This document shows, in pieces, positions 3,905 to 39,530 of a DNA stretch of 55,729 nt. This DNA is from Flavobacteriaceae bacterium (GTDB taxonomy: Bacteria; Bacteroidota; Bacteroidia; Flavobacteriales; Flavobacteriaceae): the NCBI GenBank assembly GCA_035312485.1, contig DATGBV010000107.1, positions 1 through 55,729 on the forward strand. Direction: 5' to 3'. The number at the start of each line of letters is the position of its first letter. The stretch's first letter is position 1. The position numbers and the translations under genes were made by a program. A model generated the notes under the pieces. It saw nothing but the letters and a program-made list of their open reading frames with translations. It was not told the origin of the DNA and did no database searches.

Positions 3905-5724
3905 TCTTCACCTTCAGATTCAGTTTGTTCCGAAAGCCTTTGCTCTAATTCGGCTTGAAATTCTTCCATAACTGGCCTTACAGTACTTTCAGGCAAGTCG
4001 GCAATTTTAATATACATCAATCCGTCAACTGCATTGTTAAACAATGGGTCTACATTAAAAGCAACCAATCTTGCATTTTGTTTAATATACTTTTTAAGTA
4101 AAACAGGCAACCGTAGAGCTCCAGGTTCAACCTCATCAATTATTTTGTCAAACTTATTCAGATCAGCTTCGGTTTCATCAAAAACAAAATCTTTATCAGC
4201 ATCTTTTAATTTTACCTTAAATTCTTTTTTAGGATGTACATATTGGGCAATGTATGGATCGTAATAATGTGATTTCATAAACTCAATCATCAACGATTTG
4301 GAAAAATTTGAAAATTGATTGCTAATACTTACACCACCAATTAAAAATTTATGTTCCGGATAACGTAAAGTAGTATGAACTATGCCTTTCCAGAGCAAAA
4401 ACAAAGGCATCGGCTTTTGCTGATACTCTTTAATGATGAAAGCACGTCCCATTTCAATTGATTGGCTCATCATTTTATAAAGCTCGGGCTCAAACCTGAA
4501 CAAATCTTGAAGGTAAAAGCCATTAATACCATACATTTCAAAAATCTTTGAACCTAATCCCATGCGATATGCTCCAACAATTATCTTTTTATCATCATCC
4601 CAAAGAAACATATGATGATAATAAGTGTCAAACTTATCTAAATCAATGGCTTCGTTAGTGCCTTCACCTACTTCCCTAAAGGTTATTTCACGTAGTCTCC
4701 CTATCTCATGTAAAATATTTGTGATTTTATTAGCTGGCGCTAAATACACTTCATAGTTCTTACTTTTTAATAATCTGTAATCACCGTTTTGTAAATCCTT
4801 GACCTCTTCCGTCATTGCATCTGAACTTACAGGAGTTACAATTTTTTTCGGAACCTTTGGGACTTTAAGTGTAGATGAAATAGTTTCTAATCTTTTAGGT
4901 TTATCCTCAAAAGCATTAGAAAGCATATAAGTTTTACGCCTTATGAATTCAGAAAATTCTTCGAGAGAAGTATGTTCTTTTTGGTCATTCACCGAAATAG
5001 GTCTACCTATGCGAACCTTAATAATTCTTCGCTTTTGGGTTAATAGCTCTGATGGTAATTTGGCAGTTCTAAATGTGTCACTAATTTTAGACAACTTATA
5101 AAAAAGTTTACTGTTCTTGGCATGAAAATATATAGGTACGACAGGAACTTCCGATTTTTGAATAAGTTTTATGGCGGCTTCTTCCCAAGGTTTATCTACT
5201 ACTAGTTTTCCATCCCTGTAAGTTGAAACTTCACCTGCTGGGAAAATACCTAAAGGCTTTCCTTCTTTTAAATGCATAAGCGAATTTTTAAAACCAGTAA
5301 GGCTGGATTTTACATCTTTTCTCTCTTCAAAGGGATTAACAGGCATGATGTATGGTTTCATTGGCTCTATGCGATGTAACAAAAAATTGGCAATGATTTT
5401 AAAATCATCTCGTTGTTCTAACATAAGCTTTAAGAGTAAAATACCATCAATACCGCCTAAAGGATGATTAGAAACCGTAATGTAAGCCCCATCTTTTGGA
5501 AGCCGTTTTAGGTCTTCTTCAGGAATCTCAAACTTGATTTGAAATTCGTTTAAAATAGCATTTAAAAATTCTAAATTACTTAAATGCTTGTTTCTGTTGT
5601 ATATTCTGTTGAGTGTAGAGATTTTAAGAAGCTTCATGAGTATCCATCCAAAAAAAGTACCTGCCAAACCATACTTGTCTGCATGAATTGCAATAGCTAC
5701 TTCTTTAGCGGTTACCAACCCCAT
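3901..5724 (-). CDS. Bifunctional acyltransferase + GNAT N-acyltransferase (OlsF-like aminolipid synthase)
   Basis: N-terminal NHPLGGID / FPAGEV acyltransferase motifs; C-terminal GRLREITFR, IEMGR. Confidence 0.75.
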   Translation of the reverse strand: MGLVTAKEVAIAIHADKYGLAGTFFGWILMKLLKISTLNRIYNRNKHLSNLEFLNAILNEFQIKFEIPEEDLKRLPKDGAYITVSNHPLGGIDGILLLKLMLEQRDDFKIIANFLLHRIEPMKPYIMPVNPFEERKDVKSSLTGFKNSLMHLKEGKPLGIFPAGEVSTYRDGKLVVDKPWEEAAIKLIQKSEVPVVPIYFHAKNSKLFYKLSKISDTFRTAKLPSELLTQKRRIIKVRIGRPISVNDQKEHTSLEEFSEFIRRKTYMLSNAFEDKPKRLETISSTLKVPKVPKKIVTPVSSDAMTEEVKDLQNGDYRLLKSKNYEVYLAPANKITNILHEIGRLREITFREVGEGTNEAIDLDKFDTYYHHMFLWDDDKKIIVGAYRMGLGSKIFEMYGINGFYLQDLFRFEPELYKMMSQSIEMGRAFIIKEYQQKPMPLFLLWKGIVHTTLRYPEHKFLIGGVSISNQFSNFSKSLMIEFMKSHYYDPYIAQYVHPKKEFKVKLKDADKDFVFDETEADLNKFDKIIDEVEPGALRLPVLLKKYIKQNARLVAFNVDPLFNNAVDGLMYIKIADLPESTVRPVMEEFQAELEQRLSEQTESEGED

Positions 5725-34806: not shown

Positions 34807-34837
34807 GTTTGTAAATGTTTGTAGTCGTTTGTAAACG
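34807..34837. promoter_or_regulatory. Triple GTTTGTA direct repeat with exact 10-bp period
   Basis: gtttgtaaat-gtttgtagtc-gtttgtaaacg; the last unit forms the near-palindrome CGTTT-N2-AAACG. Confidence 0.7.
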
Positions 34838-34848
34838 AATTTTTTGTA

Positions 34849-34856
34849 TATTGCAC
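34849..34856. repeat. Left target-site duplication TATTGCAC
   Basis: Identical to 39175-39182; abuts the terminal inverted repeat. Confidence 0.93.
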
Positions 34857-34899
34857 GGCATCTATATACAATAAGGGACAAGAAAATATAATGATTTAA

Positions 34900-35006
34900 G
34901 TTAGCCAGATTTGGCTATTTTTTTTTGTGAAGTCAGACCTTTAGTCCACGATTGGAAAGCCACCAGTTCAGCAATCCAGAGCGTGAGCATCCTGCCGAAT
35001 AATTCA
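34900..35006 (-). ncRNA. Candidate small structured RNA (element RNA-L)
   Basis: TACCTTTG on the minus strand at 35010-35017; locally GC-rich; stems close with G-U pairs only on the minus strand. Confidence 0.4.
34902..34926 (+). terminator. Terminator just inside the left end (blocks read-in transcription)
   Basis: tagcca-gatt-tggcta followed by 9 T. Confidence 0.75.
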
Positions 35007-35083
35007 GACCAAAGGTAATTCTATCAAATAACGTGTTGCACTTGTTAATACATGGTAGTCTTAACATACGACCAAAATCGGTG

Positions 35084-35212
35084 CTATTCCTTTTTTTTAG
35101 GTTTAGGAACGGAAACCTTTAATACGTCGTCTAAAGAAGTGTTTATCTTAAGTTTCTTCTCATACTCTTTAGAACGCTCTTTAGGCTTTTTATCTTTCTT
35201 TTCTTTGTTCAT
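35084..35212 (-). CDS. Unannotated 42-aa lysine-rich protein
   Basis: MNKEKKDKKPKERSKEYEKKLKINTSLDDVLKVSVPKPKKKE*; same strand as the transposase. Confidence 0.65.
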   Translation of the reverse strand: MNKEKKDKKPKERSKEYEKKLKINTSLDDVLKVSVPKPKKKE

Positions 35213-35326
35213 TATATTGTAAAATTAGTGATTATAACAAAAGATTAACATTTAAACTGCAATATTTTTTAAATTTATTCGTCTAATTTATAAAGTATGT
35301 CTTAATATTATATTAAATAATTTTTT

Positions 35327-35365
35327 ACCTTTGCCCTCTTTTTTTATTAAATATTTATATATTTG
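35327..35365 (+). promoter_or_regulatory. Tandem -7 boxes upstream of the TA pair
   Basis: TACCTTTG (35327-35334) and TATATTTG (35358-35365). Confidence 0.55.
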
Positions 35366-35455
35366 ATAAGTTTAGTCCTTAAAAATTGATTAATAGCAAT
35401 AATTAATTTATCCATTGTGCTCAAAAATTAATTAAAATCAATTGAAAAAAAATAA

Positions 35456-36037
35456 ATGGGTTATACTAAATCTGAAATAGAAAGAATAGGAAACACCATC
35501 ATTTATCTTCGAGAAAAAATAAATGAACCGATTTCTAAAACCAAAGCTATAAAACTTCTTTATTTTTTAGAAGAATTTTCTATAAAAAAATATGGTAGGC
35601 CATTTTTAAATTTAGAATGGGAAGTTTGGCATTTAGGGCCAGTTTCAGAAGATTTATTTGCTGAAATAAATGAACCATTTATGCTTAATGAACATATTAA
35701 ACAATCTTACCTAAATGGTTTGGATGGCTGTTTTATTGAAACAAAACATGCTTTCAATGATGATGAATTTTCGGATGCAGACATATCATTAATGGATATT
35801 TTGATTGAAAATATTGGACATCTAAATGCGAATCAGTTAATCAAGTTAGCTCATAGGAAACATACTTTATGGTATAAAATTGCCAATGAAAATAATTTAT
35901 TAGAAAGTTTTAATAATAAAACAAAAACAACCACAGACTTTAAAATCAATTTATCAGAATTACTCACAGAAGATAAATTGGAAATTTATAACGCATATAT
36001 AGAATCTAAGGAAATTAGTAAATTATATGCAATTTAA
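35456..36037 (+). CDS. Panacea-domain (DUF4065/SocA/GepA-like) antitoxin
   Basis: KAIKLLYF...YGRP...W.LGPV motif, L..LAH...W; overlaps the downstream ORF by 11 nt. Confidence 0.85.
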   Translation: MGYTKSEIERIGNTIIYLREKINEPISKTKAIKLLYFLEEFSIKKYGRPFLNLEWEVWHLGPVSEDLFAEINEPFMLNEHIKQSYLNGLDGCFIETKHAFNDDEFSDADISLMDILIENIGHLNANQLIKLAHRKHTLWYKIANENNLLESFNNKTKTTTDFKINLSELLTEDKLEIYNAYIESKEISKLYAI

Positions 36038-36470
36038 TTCATTTGAAATTCTTTTTTTCCCTTCATTCAGGTTTAAAAATGGAGCAGCTCCTTTACCAAA
36101 ATTTTTTATTGCACTAAAAAAAGTAAAGAACAAATTAATTGTTGCAAGTTTACCTACTTCCCAAGACCATGTTCCAGATAATATAAAAGTTGAAGGATGT
36201 ATAGAATATCCTGATAAATGTATTAGTTGCTTCTGTTTTTTCAAGCAAAAAACAATTTGTGATGATACTGGTTTTAAATTTCACAAAGACACTTTCATTT
36301 ACGCAAGTGCGGTTGATACTTATAATTTGGGCACTCTAAAATCTTATTACCCGATTAAAGACATTGATTATTTCGTTAAAGGGAAGCTATCTAAAAAATT
36401 AGAAACTGAACTCTATCAATGTCTTAAAAATAGTTTTGATTTAAAAAGAGGTATTAAGAAAATCCTTTAA
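36027..36470 (+). CDS. Putative toxin partner, possibly PemK/MazF-like fold
   Basis: ILFFPSFRFKNG...KFFIAL...VASLPTS and C-terminal GKLS...helix pattern resemble PemK/MazF; coupled to the Panacea gene. Confidence 0.55.
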   Translation: MQFNSFEILFFPSFRFKNGAAPLPKFFIALKKVKNKLIVASLPTSQDHVPDNIKVEGCIEYPDKCISCFCFFKQKTICDDTGFKFHKDTFIYASAVDTYNLGTLKSYYPIKDIDYFVKGKLSKKLETELYQCLKNSFDLKRGIKKIL

Positions 36471-37405
36471 ATGTTTTCCGTCAACCTCTTATAACTCAAA
36501 ACACTTTCACTATCAACTAAAAACTTCTCAAATCTTTGTTGACTTGTCAAAGAACGTGTATTAAAACGAGCCGAAAACTCATCTAAATATCTTTCCAGAT
36601 GCTTATCACTCACTTGGTGGTAAATACCATAAAGACCTCTTTTAAGCAAACTCCAAAAGTTCTCTATTGTATTTGTGTGAACTCCACCCTCAACATATAC
36701 ATTTAAAGAGTGTCTTACATTGTCATGCGTATAATACTTCTTTAAATGGTTATATACTGGTGCTTCGTCTGAATAGATCGTAGAGCCTTTAGGCACGTGT
36801 TTAGCTATCAAGCTACCGACATTGTTTAAGTCGGCACTTGGCACGTGCTTTAATACTACTTTACCATTGCGCTCAATGATACCTACTACCATTTTTTTAG
36901 CTTTATATGGTTTACCCTCGTTTGTTAGACTATTATCCTCTAAAGAGCGTTTTTTAGGAAAGTGTTTGTTACTTTCCTTTCCACCTAAATAAGCCTCGTC
37001 AACTTCTACCATATTGTTTTCGCCTAACATTTGTGGTGCTTTATCTTTCAGCATTTCTCTAATACGGTGTAAAACAAACCATGCGGTTTTTTGTGTAATT
37101 CCTAAATCTAAAGCCAGTTGCACCGAACTAATCCCTTTTTTATGTGTTGTTGCTAAAAATATTGATGCAAACCAAGTTCTTAAAGGAATTTTAGAATTAT
37201 GAAAAATAGTACCAACTTTAACTGTAAACTTTTTATAACACTCGTTATTAGCGCATTTATAACCTCTAGTAGTCTTATATGTACGCTCACAACCACAATG
37301 AGGACATACAGGCTTACCGTTCCAACGGATCTGCTCATAATACTCTATACAAGTACTTTCTTCTCTGAAGTAGTCTAAAAGCTGTGGAAGTGATTTAAAA
37401 TTCAT
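36467..37405 (-). CDS. IS1595-family DDE transposase
   Basis: Zn ribbon CPHC...C...C, HTH GISSVQLALDLGITQKTAW, VEVDEAY, IYSDE, HTNTIENFWSLLKRG, YLDEF. Confidence 0.96.
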   Translation of the reverse strand: MNFKSLPQLLDYFREESTCIEYYEQIRWNGKPVCPHCGCERTYKTTRGYKCANNECYKKFTVKVGTIFHNSKIPLRTWFASIFLATTHKKGISSVQLALDLGITQKTAWFVLHRIREMLKDKAPQMLGENNMVEVDEAYLGGKESNKHFPKKRSLEDNSLTNEGKPYKAKKMVVGIIERNGKVVLKHVPSADLNNVGSLIAKHVPKGSTIYSDEAPVYNHLKKYYTHDNVRHSLNVYVEGGVHTNTIENFWSLLKRGLYGIYHQVSDKHLERYLDEFSARFNTRSLTSQQRFEKFLVDSESVLSYKRLTENI

Positions 37406-37425
37406 AGTTTCTAATTTTATATATA

Positions 37426-37453
37426 CAAATATACAGATTGTCCCAATAAATAC
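37426..37453 (-). promoter_or_regulatory. Transposase promoter with adjacent IR-core copy
   Basis: TATATTTG on the minus strand at 37426-37433; ttgtccca at 37438-37445 matches the right IR core. Confidence 0.6.
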
Positions 37454-37828
37454 CTAATATATTATAATGTATTTTATTAAAAAAACACATATTATTATTT
37501 TACATGTATTTATGATTGAATTTAAAGTGATTTAATATACTGATTATTAGCTTAATAAAAATAATTAAATGCAAATAGAGTGTAAAAATATTAAAAACAT
37601 TAATAAACGCTATATTTTGATTAAAGATGTTTAAAAATGGTTATATAATATCTTAAATCATTGAAAAATTAATTGATTGTATTAAAAATATTGTTTGAAT
37701 TGGCATAAATCAAGTTTAAAATCCCTATTTTGAATCTAATGAACAAGTAAAATTTATAAAATAATTGAATTGTCTTTGGATATTTTAAAATGTTTTCATA
37801 CTATTGTATTGCGATAAAATTTTACATC

Positions 37829-38602
37829 ATGAAAACAACACAAAGAAGTGCATCCTATCCGTCTTATACTATAAGATATAGTTTAGATATTTGTACTGCA
37901 ATTTACAAAAATTACGGCACTAATTACAGAGCATCCAGAGAGGAATTATCTGAAATACTTGGTATTTCGGTCGGAAATCTTACTCAAAAAGTAAGTGCTG
38001 CTGTCCAGTATGGGTTACTGGATTTAAAATCAAAAGAAGGATATAAGGTTTCGGATCTATTTGTTAAATGGTTTAGGCCTATAAATGATAACCAAATGGA
38101 AGAAGCATTAATAGAGGCTTTTAAATCTCCAACCTTATATGGTAATTTAATAGAGGTTTATGAGAATCATATTGTGCCTCCATTAAAACCATTATCTAAT
38201 ATATTACTACAAAGACATAGTATTTCTGAAAGTGCTTGTGAGAAAGCATCAGGTATTTTTTTAGAAAATGCTCAAGAACTAGAACTTTTAGACAATGAAA
38301 ACAGGTTGGTTTTTGGTAAATCACTAGACGTGGACTATGAAGAACCAGATGAAGAAGATAATTTTAATGGTATTCCTAAAAAAGAAAGTACTGATAAAGT
38401 TGTATTTCCACAAATTATTAAAAAAAATAATTCAAATGAGGGAGATAATTATAGTGGTAACTCTGTTCAAGACGGCGTTATAATAAATGTGCTTTTGAAT
38501 AATAGAAGAACAGCACAAGTAATATTACCAAAAGATGTTACTCCAAAAGATTGTGATACAATTAAAGACTGGATTGATATGATTAGAAAATCTTTTAACT
38601 AA
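37829..38602 (+). CDS. Uncharacterised cargo protein, tandem winged-helix-like N-terminal region, acidic linker, small C-terminal domain
   Basis: YPSY...REELSEILG...KVSAAVQYGLL...YKVS; start taken at ATG 37829. Confidence 0.65.
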   Translation: MKTTQRSASYPSYTIRYSLDICTAIYKNYGTNYRASREELSEILGISVGNLTQKVSAAVQYGLLDLKSKEGYKVSDLFVKWFRPINDNQMEEALIEAFKSPTLYGNLIEVYENHIVPPLKPLSNILLQRHSISESACEKASGIFLENAQELELLDNENRLVFGKSLDVDYEEPDEEDNFNGIPKKESTDKVVFPQIIKKNNSNEGDNYSGNSVQDGVIINVLLNNRRTAQVILPKDVTPKDCDTIKDWIDMIRKSFN

Positions 38603-38640
38603 AACAAAGAACCGCACTTATTTGTGCGGTTCTATATTTT
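38603..38640. terminator. Bidirectional terminator
   Basis: agaaccgcac-ttattt-gtgcggttct, T-rich on both strands. Confidence 0.85.
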
Positions 38641-38680
38641 TGCGAATAAAATTTTACAATCGGAGTGCGATTGAAAAGTG
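38603..38680 (-). ncRNA. Candidate ~75-nt RNA convergent on the winged-helix gene (RNA-M)
   Basis: TACATTTG on the minus strand at 38684-38691, hairpin caatcg-N5-cgattg, shared terminator, no ORF. Confidence 0.45.
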
Positions 38681-38849
38681 ATACAAATGTATAGAATAGA
38701 AAGCAACAAACCTAAGAAAATGGAAGATTTATTTAAAAAAAATGCGAAATTGTTGTGAGTTGGTGTTATATATAAAAATAAGAAAACAAACTAAAAATAC
38801 AATAGATTATTTTTTAAAAGATGTTTGTAAGTTTACAAAGAAATAAAAT

Positions 38850-39042
38850 AGAAAAGCACCCTAAAAAGGATGCTTAAAATATAAGGTTGTAATCGAAAGA
38901 CCTGCCAACATATACAGGTTGCAAGTTAAGTTAGACTTCCTCTCATAAAGGAATGAACTAAACACTCCAAAGATTACTTCTGAAATCCTGCTCTAACAGG
39001 TTGAAAAAGGTCGGTAGATACGTTTCTATCGGCTTTTTGCAT
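38850..39042 (-). ncRNA. Candidate ~190-nt multi-hairpin RNA (RNA-R)
   Basis: TACCTTTG on the minus strand at 39046-39053; terminator aagcatcct-tttt-agggtgctt at 38854-38875; two CAACCTGT...GCAGG hairpins. Confidence 0.55.
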
Positions 39043-39080
39043 TTACAAAGGTAACAAATTTGTTGTACAAAATTAAAAAA

Positions 39081-39099
39081 TTGTAACCGTTTGTAAACG
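39081..39099 (+). promoter_or_regulatory. Element-borne copy of the host GTTTGTA-repeat motif
   Basis: ttgtaaccgtttgtaaacg versus host ttgtagtcgtttgtaaacg (34819-34837), 17/19 identical. Confidence 0.65.
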
Positions 39100-39174
39100 G
39101 ATAATTTTACTTAACTTTATTTCGTTAATTAATTATAAATATTAGTCTCTTGTCCCATAATGTAAATAGACGCC

Positions 39175-39182
39175 TATTGCAC
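39175..39182. repeat. Right target-site duplication TATTGCAC
   Basis: Identical to 34849-34856. Confidence 0.93.
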
Positions 39183-39185
39183 TCC

Positions 39186-39530
39186 ATGCAAAAACAATGT
39201 TTGGAATGTGGTGATAAAATAGTGGGCAGAATTGATAAAAAATTCTGTAGTGATGGCTGTAGAAATGCATATAACAATAGAATAAATAAAGATTCTAAGA
39301 ACCTGATCAGAAACGTAAATAATAGGTTACGTAAAAATTATCGTATTCTTGAAGAATTGAATCCTGAACAAAAAACAAAAACCACGAGGTCTAAACTTAT
39401 AGAAAAAGGCTTTGATTTTAATTATATAACCACAGTTTATACCACCAAATCCGGCAACGTATATTATTTTGTATATGATCAAGGCTATTTGCCTTTAGAA
39501 GATGATTACTATGCTTTAGTGAAAAGGTAA
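39186..39530 (+). CDS. Conserved-looking C4 zinc-finger protein
   Basis: CLECG...GRIDKKFCSDGCRNAYNN; true start ATG 39186 (the ORF-track extension lies inside the IR). Confidence 0.8.
   Translation: MQKQCLECGDKIVGRIDKKFCSDGCRNAYNNRINKDSKNLIRNVNNRLRKNYRILEELNPEQKTKTTRSKLIEKGFDFNYITTVYTTKSGNVYYFVYDQGYLPLEDDYYALVKR

Follow-up and report, generated by a model that had tools for sequence, protein, structure and literature searches.

The window, by which we mean the whole 55,729-nt stretch of flavobacterial DNA analyzed here, contains an IS1595-family cargo transposon (transporter IS) upstream of the host ssb gene. The boundaries of this element were not delimited in the initial annotation, which had described a structured RNA, RNA-R; this RNA lies inside it. 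The element and its surroundings comprise the following features:

34807..34833, minus strand: three TACAAAC boxes spaced by 10 bp, lying 24 bp away from the element in the promoter region of host ssb
34849..34856, plus strand: left copy of the 8-bp target duplication TATTGCAC, seen in the sequence
34857..39174, no strand: IS1595-family cargo transposon of 4,318 bp, from inverted repeats and target duplication
34857-34888 and 39143-39174, no strand: 32-nt terminal inverted repeats
35084..35212, minus strand: 42-aa lysine-rich micro-protein, clustered across loci
35456..36470, plus strand: passenger pair, Panacea-domain antitoxin (PF13274) and 147-aa partner
36467..37405, minus strand: IS1595 transposase with zinc ribbon and DDE domain (PF12760, PF12762)
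37790..38602, plus strand: convergent passenger, winged-helix-like protein without named family (weak HTH match)
39175..39182, plus strand: right copy of the 8-bp target duplication, seen in the sequence

The carrier combines a transposase of the zinc-ribbon and DDE_Tnp_IS1595 type with repeats, an 8-bp duplication and passengers, as is characteristic of IS1595 transporter ISs. Duplications of 8 bp and passenger-carrying members are known in the family from the parts of PMC8101967 and 10.1101/2021.05.26.445724 that deal with it, and our element shares with the transporter ISs of these sources the zinc-ribbon DDE transposase, GG-ended repeats, 8-bp duplication and passengers. For its RNA cargo slot, near-universal micro-protein and preference for the ssb promoter, the literature searched gave no description. 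A literature search, which covered few subscription papers, found no description of IS1595 elements with non-coding RNA, ssb targeting or tRNA-like cargo. The empty site was represented by contigs from two runs, one of which may be the source sample, that join 34848 to 39175, and the same-genus genome G032 is likewise empty at this insertion site. Within the 94%-complete assembly the transposon is single-copy.

A model of the winged-helix-like passenger (pLDDT 80) gave weak matches, mostly to winged-helix regulators (E about 0.01-0.06), and neither a family nor a clear fold match was found for it. Its gene has its own terminator (38608-38633), 220 nt from RNA-R. By the end of this gene, within 38633-38700, we observed a small hairpin (38648-38662 region) common to L033 and L082; together with a promoter-like box in these two loci, it is possibly a second small RNA. 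No family matched the 147-aa partner of the Panacea antitoxin (36027-36470), which is likely an uncharacterised bacterial type II toxin. The micro-protein, for which no named family was found, is present in 51 of 85 loci as a lysine-rich protein of 38-56 aa with a constant hydrophobic core; its gene lies toward the end on the ssb side, and it is a candidate for a role in targeting or regulation. Between it and the end repeat lies a second non-coding slot, which is richer in G+C (34890-35080; single-sequence z −1.65); several sequence types occupy this slot among relatives, and a one-way terminator adjoins the repeat. Relatives also carry degenerate tRNA-like genes (L038 5640-5713, L041 5696-5769, L053 4012-4086, L054 2172-2242, L057 ~5330-5410), one of which has a CAU anticodon arm; a relaxed tRNA scan gave noise and was repeated with stricter settings. 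Finally, small basic frames rich in Arg, Thr and Val were seen in L037, L055, L061, L068, L080 and L134 (also L048, L064, L065 and L075), 3′ of Arc-like ribbon-helix-helix genes and with the slot RNA overlapping on the other strand.

The tandem TACAAAC array occurs at one place only in the 3.07-Mb assembly. Among transposase-selected elements, 13 of 27 distinct right ends adjoin at least two TACAAAC-like boxes. The distance between element and boxes is typically ∼12, 22-25 or 32-35 bp, and ssb follows, mostly 148-250 bp further on. Insertions upstream of ssb (the window; L027, L033, L035, L040-L042, L053, L055, L061, L065, L068, L069, L071, L075, L076, L082 and L134) share one orientation, with a different duplication nearly every time. 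Insertion at the ssb promoter thus looks like targeting through a DNA-bound protein. A conserved zinc-finger-like host gene (39186-39530) is divergent from ssb, the element lying 11 bp before its start, and we speculate that its product binds the TACAAAC boxes. Single boxes also flank RNA-R inside the element (39089-39095 and 38823-38829), which suggests control shared with ssb; they were not seen in most relatives.

RNA-R itself and its parts are arranged as follows:

38850..39041, minus strand: RNA-R, predicted small RNA of ∼190 nt, from promoter box and terminator in the sequence
39046..39053, minus strand: Bacteroidota −7 promoter box TACCTTTG, from a strict pattern search
39004..39038, plus strand: 5′ hairpin, predicted intrinsic terminator of opposite-strand (plus) transcripts, with a T-run after it on the plus strand
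38987..39000, minus strand: optional hairpin P0 (CCUG/CAGG; the hairpin of the initial annotation spans 39003-38987), loop sequence variable
38889..38977, minus strand: three-way-junction core of 89 nt, from homologue alignment and pair counts
38977-38972 with 38894-38889, minus strand: P1, enclosing GUAAUC/GAUUAC stem, pairs anchored separately
38937..38953, minus strand: apical hairpin P3 (UUCCU/AGGAA) with loop UUAUGAG, family consensus C-U-N-A-U-G-A-R
38900..38919, minus strand: hairpin P4 with U-rich hexaloop (the hairpin of the initial annotation spans 38921-38900), from pair covariation
38850..38875, minus strand: intrinsic terminator of RNA-R, stem 38875-38854 and U-run
38974..39042, minus strand: 22-codon frame, rejected as the function

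All features described in the initial annotation, namely its hairpins, the enclosing stem, the terminator, the −7 box and the 22-codon frame, were recovered at the positions it gives. Flavobacterial transcription starts 4-5 nt past the −7 box, and the −33 box is weak, according to the promoter sections of PMC6847099 and PMC9723704. This spacing puts the predicted 5′ end of RNA-R at 39041 or 39040 and, with the terminator marking a 3′ end at 38850, its length near 190 nt. No −33 box was found at the usual distance from the −7 box in this copy. A strict −7 box followed by an A-run lies upstream of the core in 18 of 22 family members; among 1000 intergenic windows taken at random from the host, 3.2% have one. 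A terminator lies at most 275 nt 3′ of the core in 18 of 22 members, compared with 3% of 200 random host windows. Since no same-strand gene follows inside the terminator, RNA-R is not a leader; a riboswitch or 5′ leader was rejected on the same grounds, RNA-R being terminator-ended and the next gene mostly convergent. The 5′ hairpin is weakly paired on the RNA's own strand and folds better on the opposite strand in all 22 members, extending to the family what had been noticed in this copy. We infer that it acts as a one-way terminator for transcripts arriving from the passenger side, with RNA-R passing through.

A homologue search, covariation analysis, an Rfam covariance-model search and a record of co-occurring genes, all proposed in the initial annotation, were carried out. 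The search yielded 22 distinct core homologues in flavobacteria after duplicate removal. Those carriers that have a name belong to Flavobacteriaceae or to unclassified Flavobacteriales/Bacteroidetes, and cultured ones include Altibacter lentus JLT2010 (L027) and Pontimicrobium aquaticum CAU 1491 (L035). When 300 family genomes were searched by Blast, three matches to the core were obtained; 13 further weak matches, five of which were viewed, covered the terminator portion of the query and were discarded. A pattern scan of the species-genome collection returned 22 matches, half of which were true (8 of these 11 loci contain an IS1595 transposase) and the other 11 dropped as chance. Among the latter 11 were three rplL-rpoB spacers, which the first model scored at E 0.13-0.37 or not at all and the second not at all, and which have no counterpart in the host. 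When 72 metagenome loci were chosen by transposase alone, many of them on partial contigs, 11 carried the core. RNA-R is not a core chromosomal gene, being present in just 2 of 150 family genomes and 1 of 5 genomes in the genus of G263, and the core was not found in the 150 phylum genomes searched or RNA-R in plasmid and phage collections. A transposase of this IS1595 family is encoded in the locus of 18 of the 22 members, a ratio that is biased because 9 of these 18 were found by transposase search. For the other four (L009, L030, L032, L036) the available sequence holds none; L036 is a 2.5-kb contig and the sequence of L030 stops at a distance of 2.6 kb from the RNA, so either may have a transposase farther out.

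RNA-R is a real conserved structure. Its single sequence folds only modestly better than shuffles (z −1.96 on the minus and −2.65 on the plus strand), and as single-sequence folding is weak evidence, the case rests on the homologues. The core is a three-way junction of P1, a long arm (P2a-P2b-P3) and P4. Across the 22 sequences, two-sided changes were present in 17 of 21 tested P2-P4 pairs, against 10.3 ± 1.4 in shuffles, of which 0/500 reached 17; these counts treat related sequences without regard to kinship, the statistics being shuffle-based and not tree-aware. The core alignment holds 69 cells with two-sided change, and 83% of its cells pair, compared with 31-54% in slid controls. Such changes affect 6/7 pairs in P4, and P2a is the weakest helix (1/4). 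P1, which was misaligned in the main alignment and therefore anchored separately, has arms of 5-10 pairs in 21 of 22 members, with pair 3 being A-U in 12 and G-C in 6. A possible loop-loop pairing of P3 with P4 was rejected, as it showed no covariation and 283/500 shuffles paired equally well.

The initial annotation held that G-U pairs favor the minus strand. This was borne out in P2a and P4 (G-U versus A-C cells 37:2 and 19:9) but not in P3 and P2b (11:11 and 3:3). Raw folding energy is lower on the minus-type strand in 20 of 22 members, and z-scores favor that strand in 14 of 22. Covariation, promoter, terminator and an unconserved peptide back the description of RNA-R as a stand-alone, minus-strand, non-coding structured RNA, the transcript being predicted.

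Several features that are conspicuous in this copy are not conserved. The 22-codon frame has no start codon in 12 of 22 members, the remainder encoding 3-24 unrelated residues, and its AUG begins 5′ of the predicted RNA-R +1; a conserved peptide, which the initial annotation itself had named as one of the findings that would speak against an RNA, is thereby rejected as the function. The likeness between the two CCUG/CAGG hairpins, highlighted there as a repeat, is not kept in relatives. P0 is present in 8 of 21 distinct members, its loop inverts among relatives (the loops of L009 and L097, and of L045 and L030, are mutual reverse complements) and its occurrence is unrelated to that of P4, which makes the repeat incidental. 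The conserved features are the apical C-U-N-A-U-G-A-R hairpin and the junction. Two members, L045 and L078, lack the AUGA loop and keep the rest of the core, so the junction may have a role of its own. Optional 3′ extensions of the core were also seen (L027, L033, L040, L072, L049 and L030, L035, L073, L078, L110); they consist either of paired hairpins whose loop is UUUGGAAG or of another conserved module of stems.

Nor does RNA-R have a constant neighbor. The genes beside the core belong to the winged-helix family found in the window in 3 of 22 members, to P63C in 2 and to coiled-coil/winged-helix types in 8, with others or none in 9; the coiled-coil/winged-helix neighbors have no Pfam family, apart from one weak HARE-HTH lead at 11% of a cluster. 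RNA type and neighbor gene shuffle independently, and the same genes occur with other RNA types.

Elements without the RNA-R core mostly hold another structured RNA in the same slot, and two such uncatalogued types, B (10 loci viewed; L053, L073, L051, L056, L076, L063, L049, L075, L083, L047, L133) and C (8 viewed, two outliers included; L055, L064, L080, L068, L048, L104, L122, L134), sit behind the same promoter, A-run and 5′ hairpin as RNA-R. Their folds are different, yet a P3-like hairpin is present, in many cases as two copies, and the stems of the AUGA hairpins covary across folds while the loop stays constant. Over 46 hairpins the loop reads C in 33, U in 41 and A in 34, then AUGA by selection, then G in 30 and A in 30. 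These counts and a hairpin tally of 33/39 are partly circular, the motif having guided the choice, by eye, of types B and C. In an unbiased count, a promoter-led AUGA hairpin was present in 12 of 18 complete transposase-selected elements, compared with 1-8 for 17 control words (the word ACTA reached 8/18), and all loci together gave 51 AUGA hairpins, compared with 9-17 for five rearranged words. No set of host leaders sharing the hairpin was seen in 468 kb (7 matches for ATG versus 1-6 for control words). Viral contigs gave no match to the core or to type-B RNA in direct searches, one type-C match, and one transposase locus with type-B RNA; on phage contigs, types B and C are both inside IS1595 elements. 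Decay of the carrier can be seen in L009, which lies upstream of ssb and has a decayed end repeat, and in L134 of the same genus, a transposase-less remnant that keeps its type-C RNA.

We compared RNA-R with known classes of RNA. Rfam 15 gave no match at gathering score in the window and none over 38850-39053 at E up to 10; in the RNA slot of 8 homologous loci, nothing matched at E up to 0.5 except the tRNA-like gene in L053. No Rfam ribozyme matched RNA-R. By eye, the P3 loop resembles the hammerhead U-turn motif, but the partner strand of that core is missing. Possible resemblances to PyrR loops, to rRNA helices, to Cas13b repeats and to LexA boxes were set aside, the matching bases varying among members. 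Closest to RNA-R are the orphan motifs with 3′ terminators in PMC5737381: as far as the motif descriptions of that source go, DUF3800-I, drum and FuFi-1, along with skipping-rope, are likewise stand-alone, multi-stem, terminator-ended and outside 5′ leaders, and its 11 DUF3800 motifs put several folds to one role, as the slot RNAs seem to do. RNA-R differs from the motifs described there in being tied to a transposon slot, not to one protein domain, and in that the slot folds share a hairpin. A DUF3800-I-like RNA was seen before a 217-aa passenger gene in L053 (5853-5953; E 0.002, just under gathering score). We conclude that RNA-R stands for a real family of structured RNAs that is uncatalogued and travels as cargo of transposons; the function given below is a proposal drawn from sequence.

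Our tentative reading, held with slightly less than even confidence, is that RNA-R is a trans-acting decoy or ligand for a host protein, bound through the apical C-U-N-A-U-G-A-R hairpin. The cargo RNA would be transcribed as a stand-alone small RNA and present this hairpin, on the long arm of the junction, as a protein binding site. The partner would be a host factor, since neighbor genes vary and transposase-less copies keep the fold; most plausibly it would be an RNA-binding protein or nuclease of translation or defense, whose titration may let the element persist. The 5′ hairpin would meanwhile stop oncoming passenger transcripts and let RNA-R through. Loops that stay constant while their stems vary, one hairpin on several scaffolds, the lack of a constant partner gene and the survival of copies that have no transposase agree best with a trans-acting binder of host protein. 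The protein-binding RNA of the initial annotation therefore keeps one half of its description, a stand-alone structured RNA that probably binds protein, and loses the partners suggested at the time: no toxin family co-occurs with RNA-R as expected of an RNA antitoxin, and the winged-helix protein, whose ligand it was supposed to be, is encoded beside only 3 of 22 members. CsrB-type sponges are comparable in binding protein via a repeated RNA element; RNA-R has no tandem array. Judged by the definitions of types I, III and VIII in the toxin-antitoxin overview of PMC8610362, it also departs from the type III antitoxins ToxI, CptI and TenpI: these bind protein via a repeated small RNA element, as modelled here, whereas RNA-R shows no direct-repeat array, no constant neighbor, no adjacent cognate nuclease gene or endoribonuclease family match, and a different loop motif.

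Alternatively, no protein would be needed. The AUG of the loop could capture tRNA-Met or stall initiation complexes in a CreT-like manner, making RNA-R an all-RNA addiction or defense module whose antisense brake is a fully overlapping opposite-strand transcript ending at the 5′ hairpin. We consider this unlikely, if with an appreciable chance. The loop in the window is exactly complementary, over 7 nt, to the anticodon loop in two CAU tRNAs of the host, A-U-G-A is constant (the first loop base is A in 4/46 hairpins), an opposite-strand terminator lies at the RNA 5′ end in 22/22, and transposon remnants keep slot RNAs. However, the loop base facing A37 is A in 34/46 hairpins, no consistent opposite-strand promoter was established, and no CRISPR repeat or Cas link was apparent, neither CRISPR-repeat-like antitoxins nor cas genes being seen in the gene maps of the loci. 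According to the CreT sections of PMC8501985 and PMC10097628, these toxins need a start codon and a hairpin, and they share with RNA-R a small RNA with AUG, mini-frame and hairpin; a six-codon frame indeed starts at the P3-loop AUG in 14 of 21 members. RNA-R differs from the toxins of those sections in having no usable SD spacing (GGAG is 18 nt from the AUG), no rare-codon run (AGA, which usually comes second, is the arginine codon most used by the host), its AUG in a long-arm loop, and a mini-frame that is lost in divergent members (7/21) and was rejected as the function. The wider proposal, that the swappable RNA slot of this ssb-promoter-seeking IS1595 family holds unrelated folds which all display an AUG(A) loop and act on translation initiation or tRNA-Met, braked by an overlapping antisense RNA, as a protein-free, CRISPR-independent addiction or anti-phage module that an insertion sequence spreads, appears doubtful to a similar degree. 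Were the opposite strand the working one, the hairpin could instead mimic the tRNA-Met anticodon stem-loop, binding methionyl-tRNA synthetase or decoying an anticodon nuclease. On the plus strand it does form a stem of 5 bp whose 7-nt loop is that of host CAU tRNAs, this strand has a good terminator, and tRNA-like genes occur in five loci; position 37, however, would be U in most copies, and core promoter, terminator and G-U bias favor the other strand, leaving this reading a slight chance.

A cis-acting role, in which RNA-R would regulate, like a type I antitoxin, a convergent passenger mRNA reading through the core to the 5′ hairpin, is quite unlikely. In 16 of 22 members the terminator is followed by a convergent passenger gene, and the RNA overlaps a small basic Arg/Thr/Val-rich opposite frame in L037, L065 and type-C elements, but the partner genes come from at least five families, the one in the window has its own terminator, no small hydrophobic frame lies opposite RNA-R, and plain pairing leaves the conserved loops and junction bases unexplained. 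Bridge and seek RNAs carry a guide segment that matches the target site and changes with the target. In 20 elements, the longest match of the RNA to its own target averaged 7.95 nt, compared with 8.19 nt for other targets, which gives no sign that RNA-R is such a guide RNA. This result also weighs on a role as transposition cofactor, as put forward in the initial annotation, in which the hairpin would bind the transposase or micro-protein and tune activity or target choice. The 18 members that adjoin, upstream, the IS1595 transposase family, the filled slot in most complete elements and the strong site preference of the family speak for it; the insertion-site match, no better than chance, the varying RNA orientation and distance to the element ends, and the four members without transposase in the available sequence make it very unlikely. 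That the conservation stems from a small peptide or from a palindrome at the DNA level is barely credible and already largely refuted: open frames exist and P0 loops invert between relatives, but the frames are unconserved, compensatory changes affect four helices, and promoter and terminator are strand-specific.

With RNA-R, a phylum in which small RNAs have been little studied gains an RNA class that is uncatalogued and covaries well. Three folds converging on one hairpin in one transposon family point to a single partner. If the loop does act on tRNA-Met or initiation, RNA-only toxin modules of a novel type would be represented here. The ssb preference, freely varying duplications and fixed box distance, for their part, make this family a candidate case of protein-directed targeting by a simple insertion sequence.
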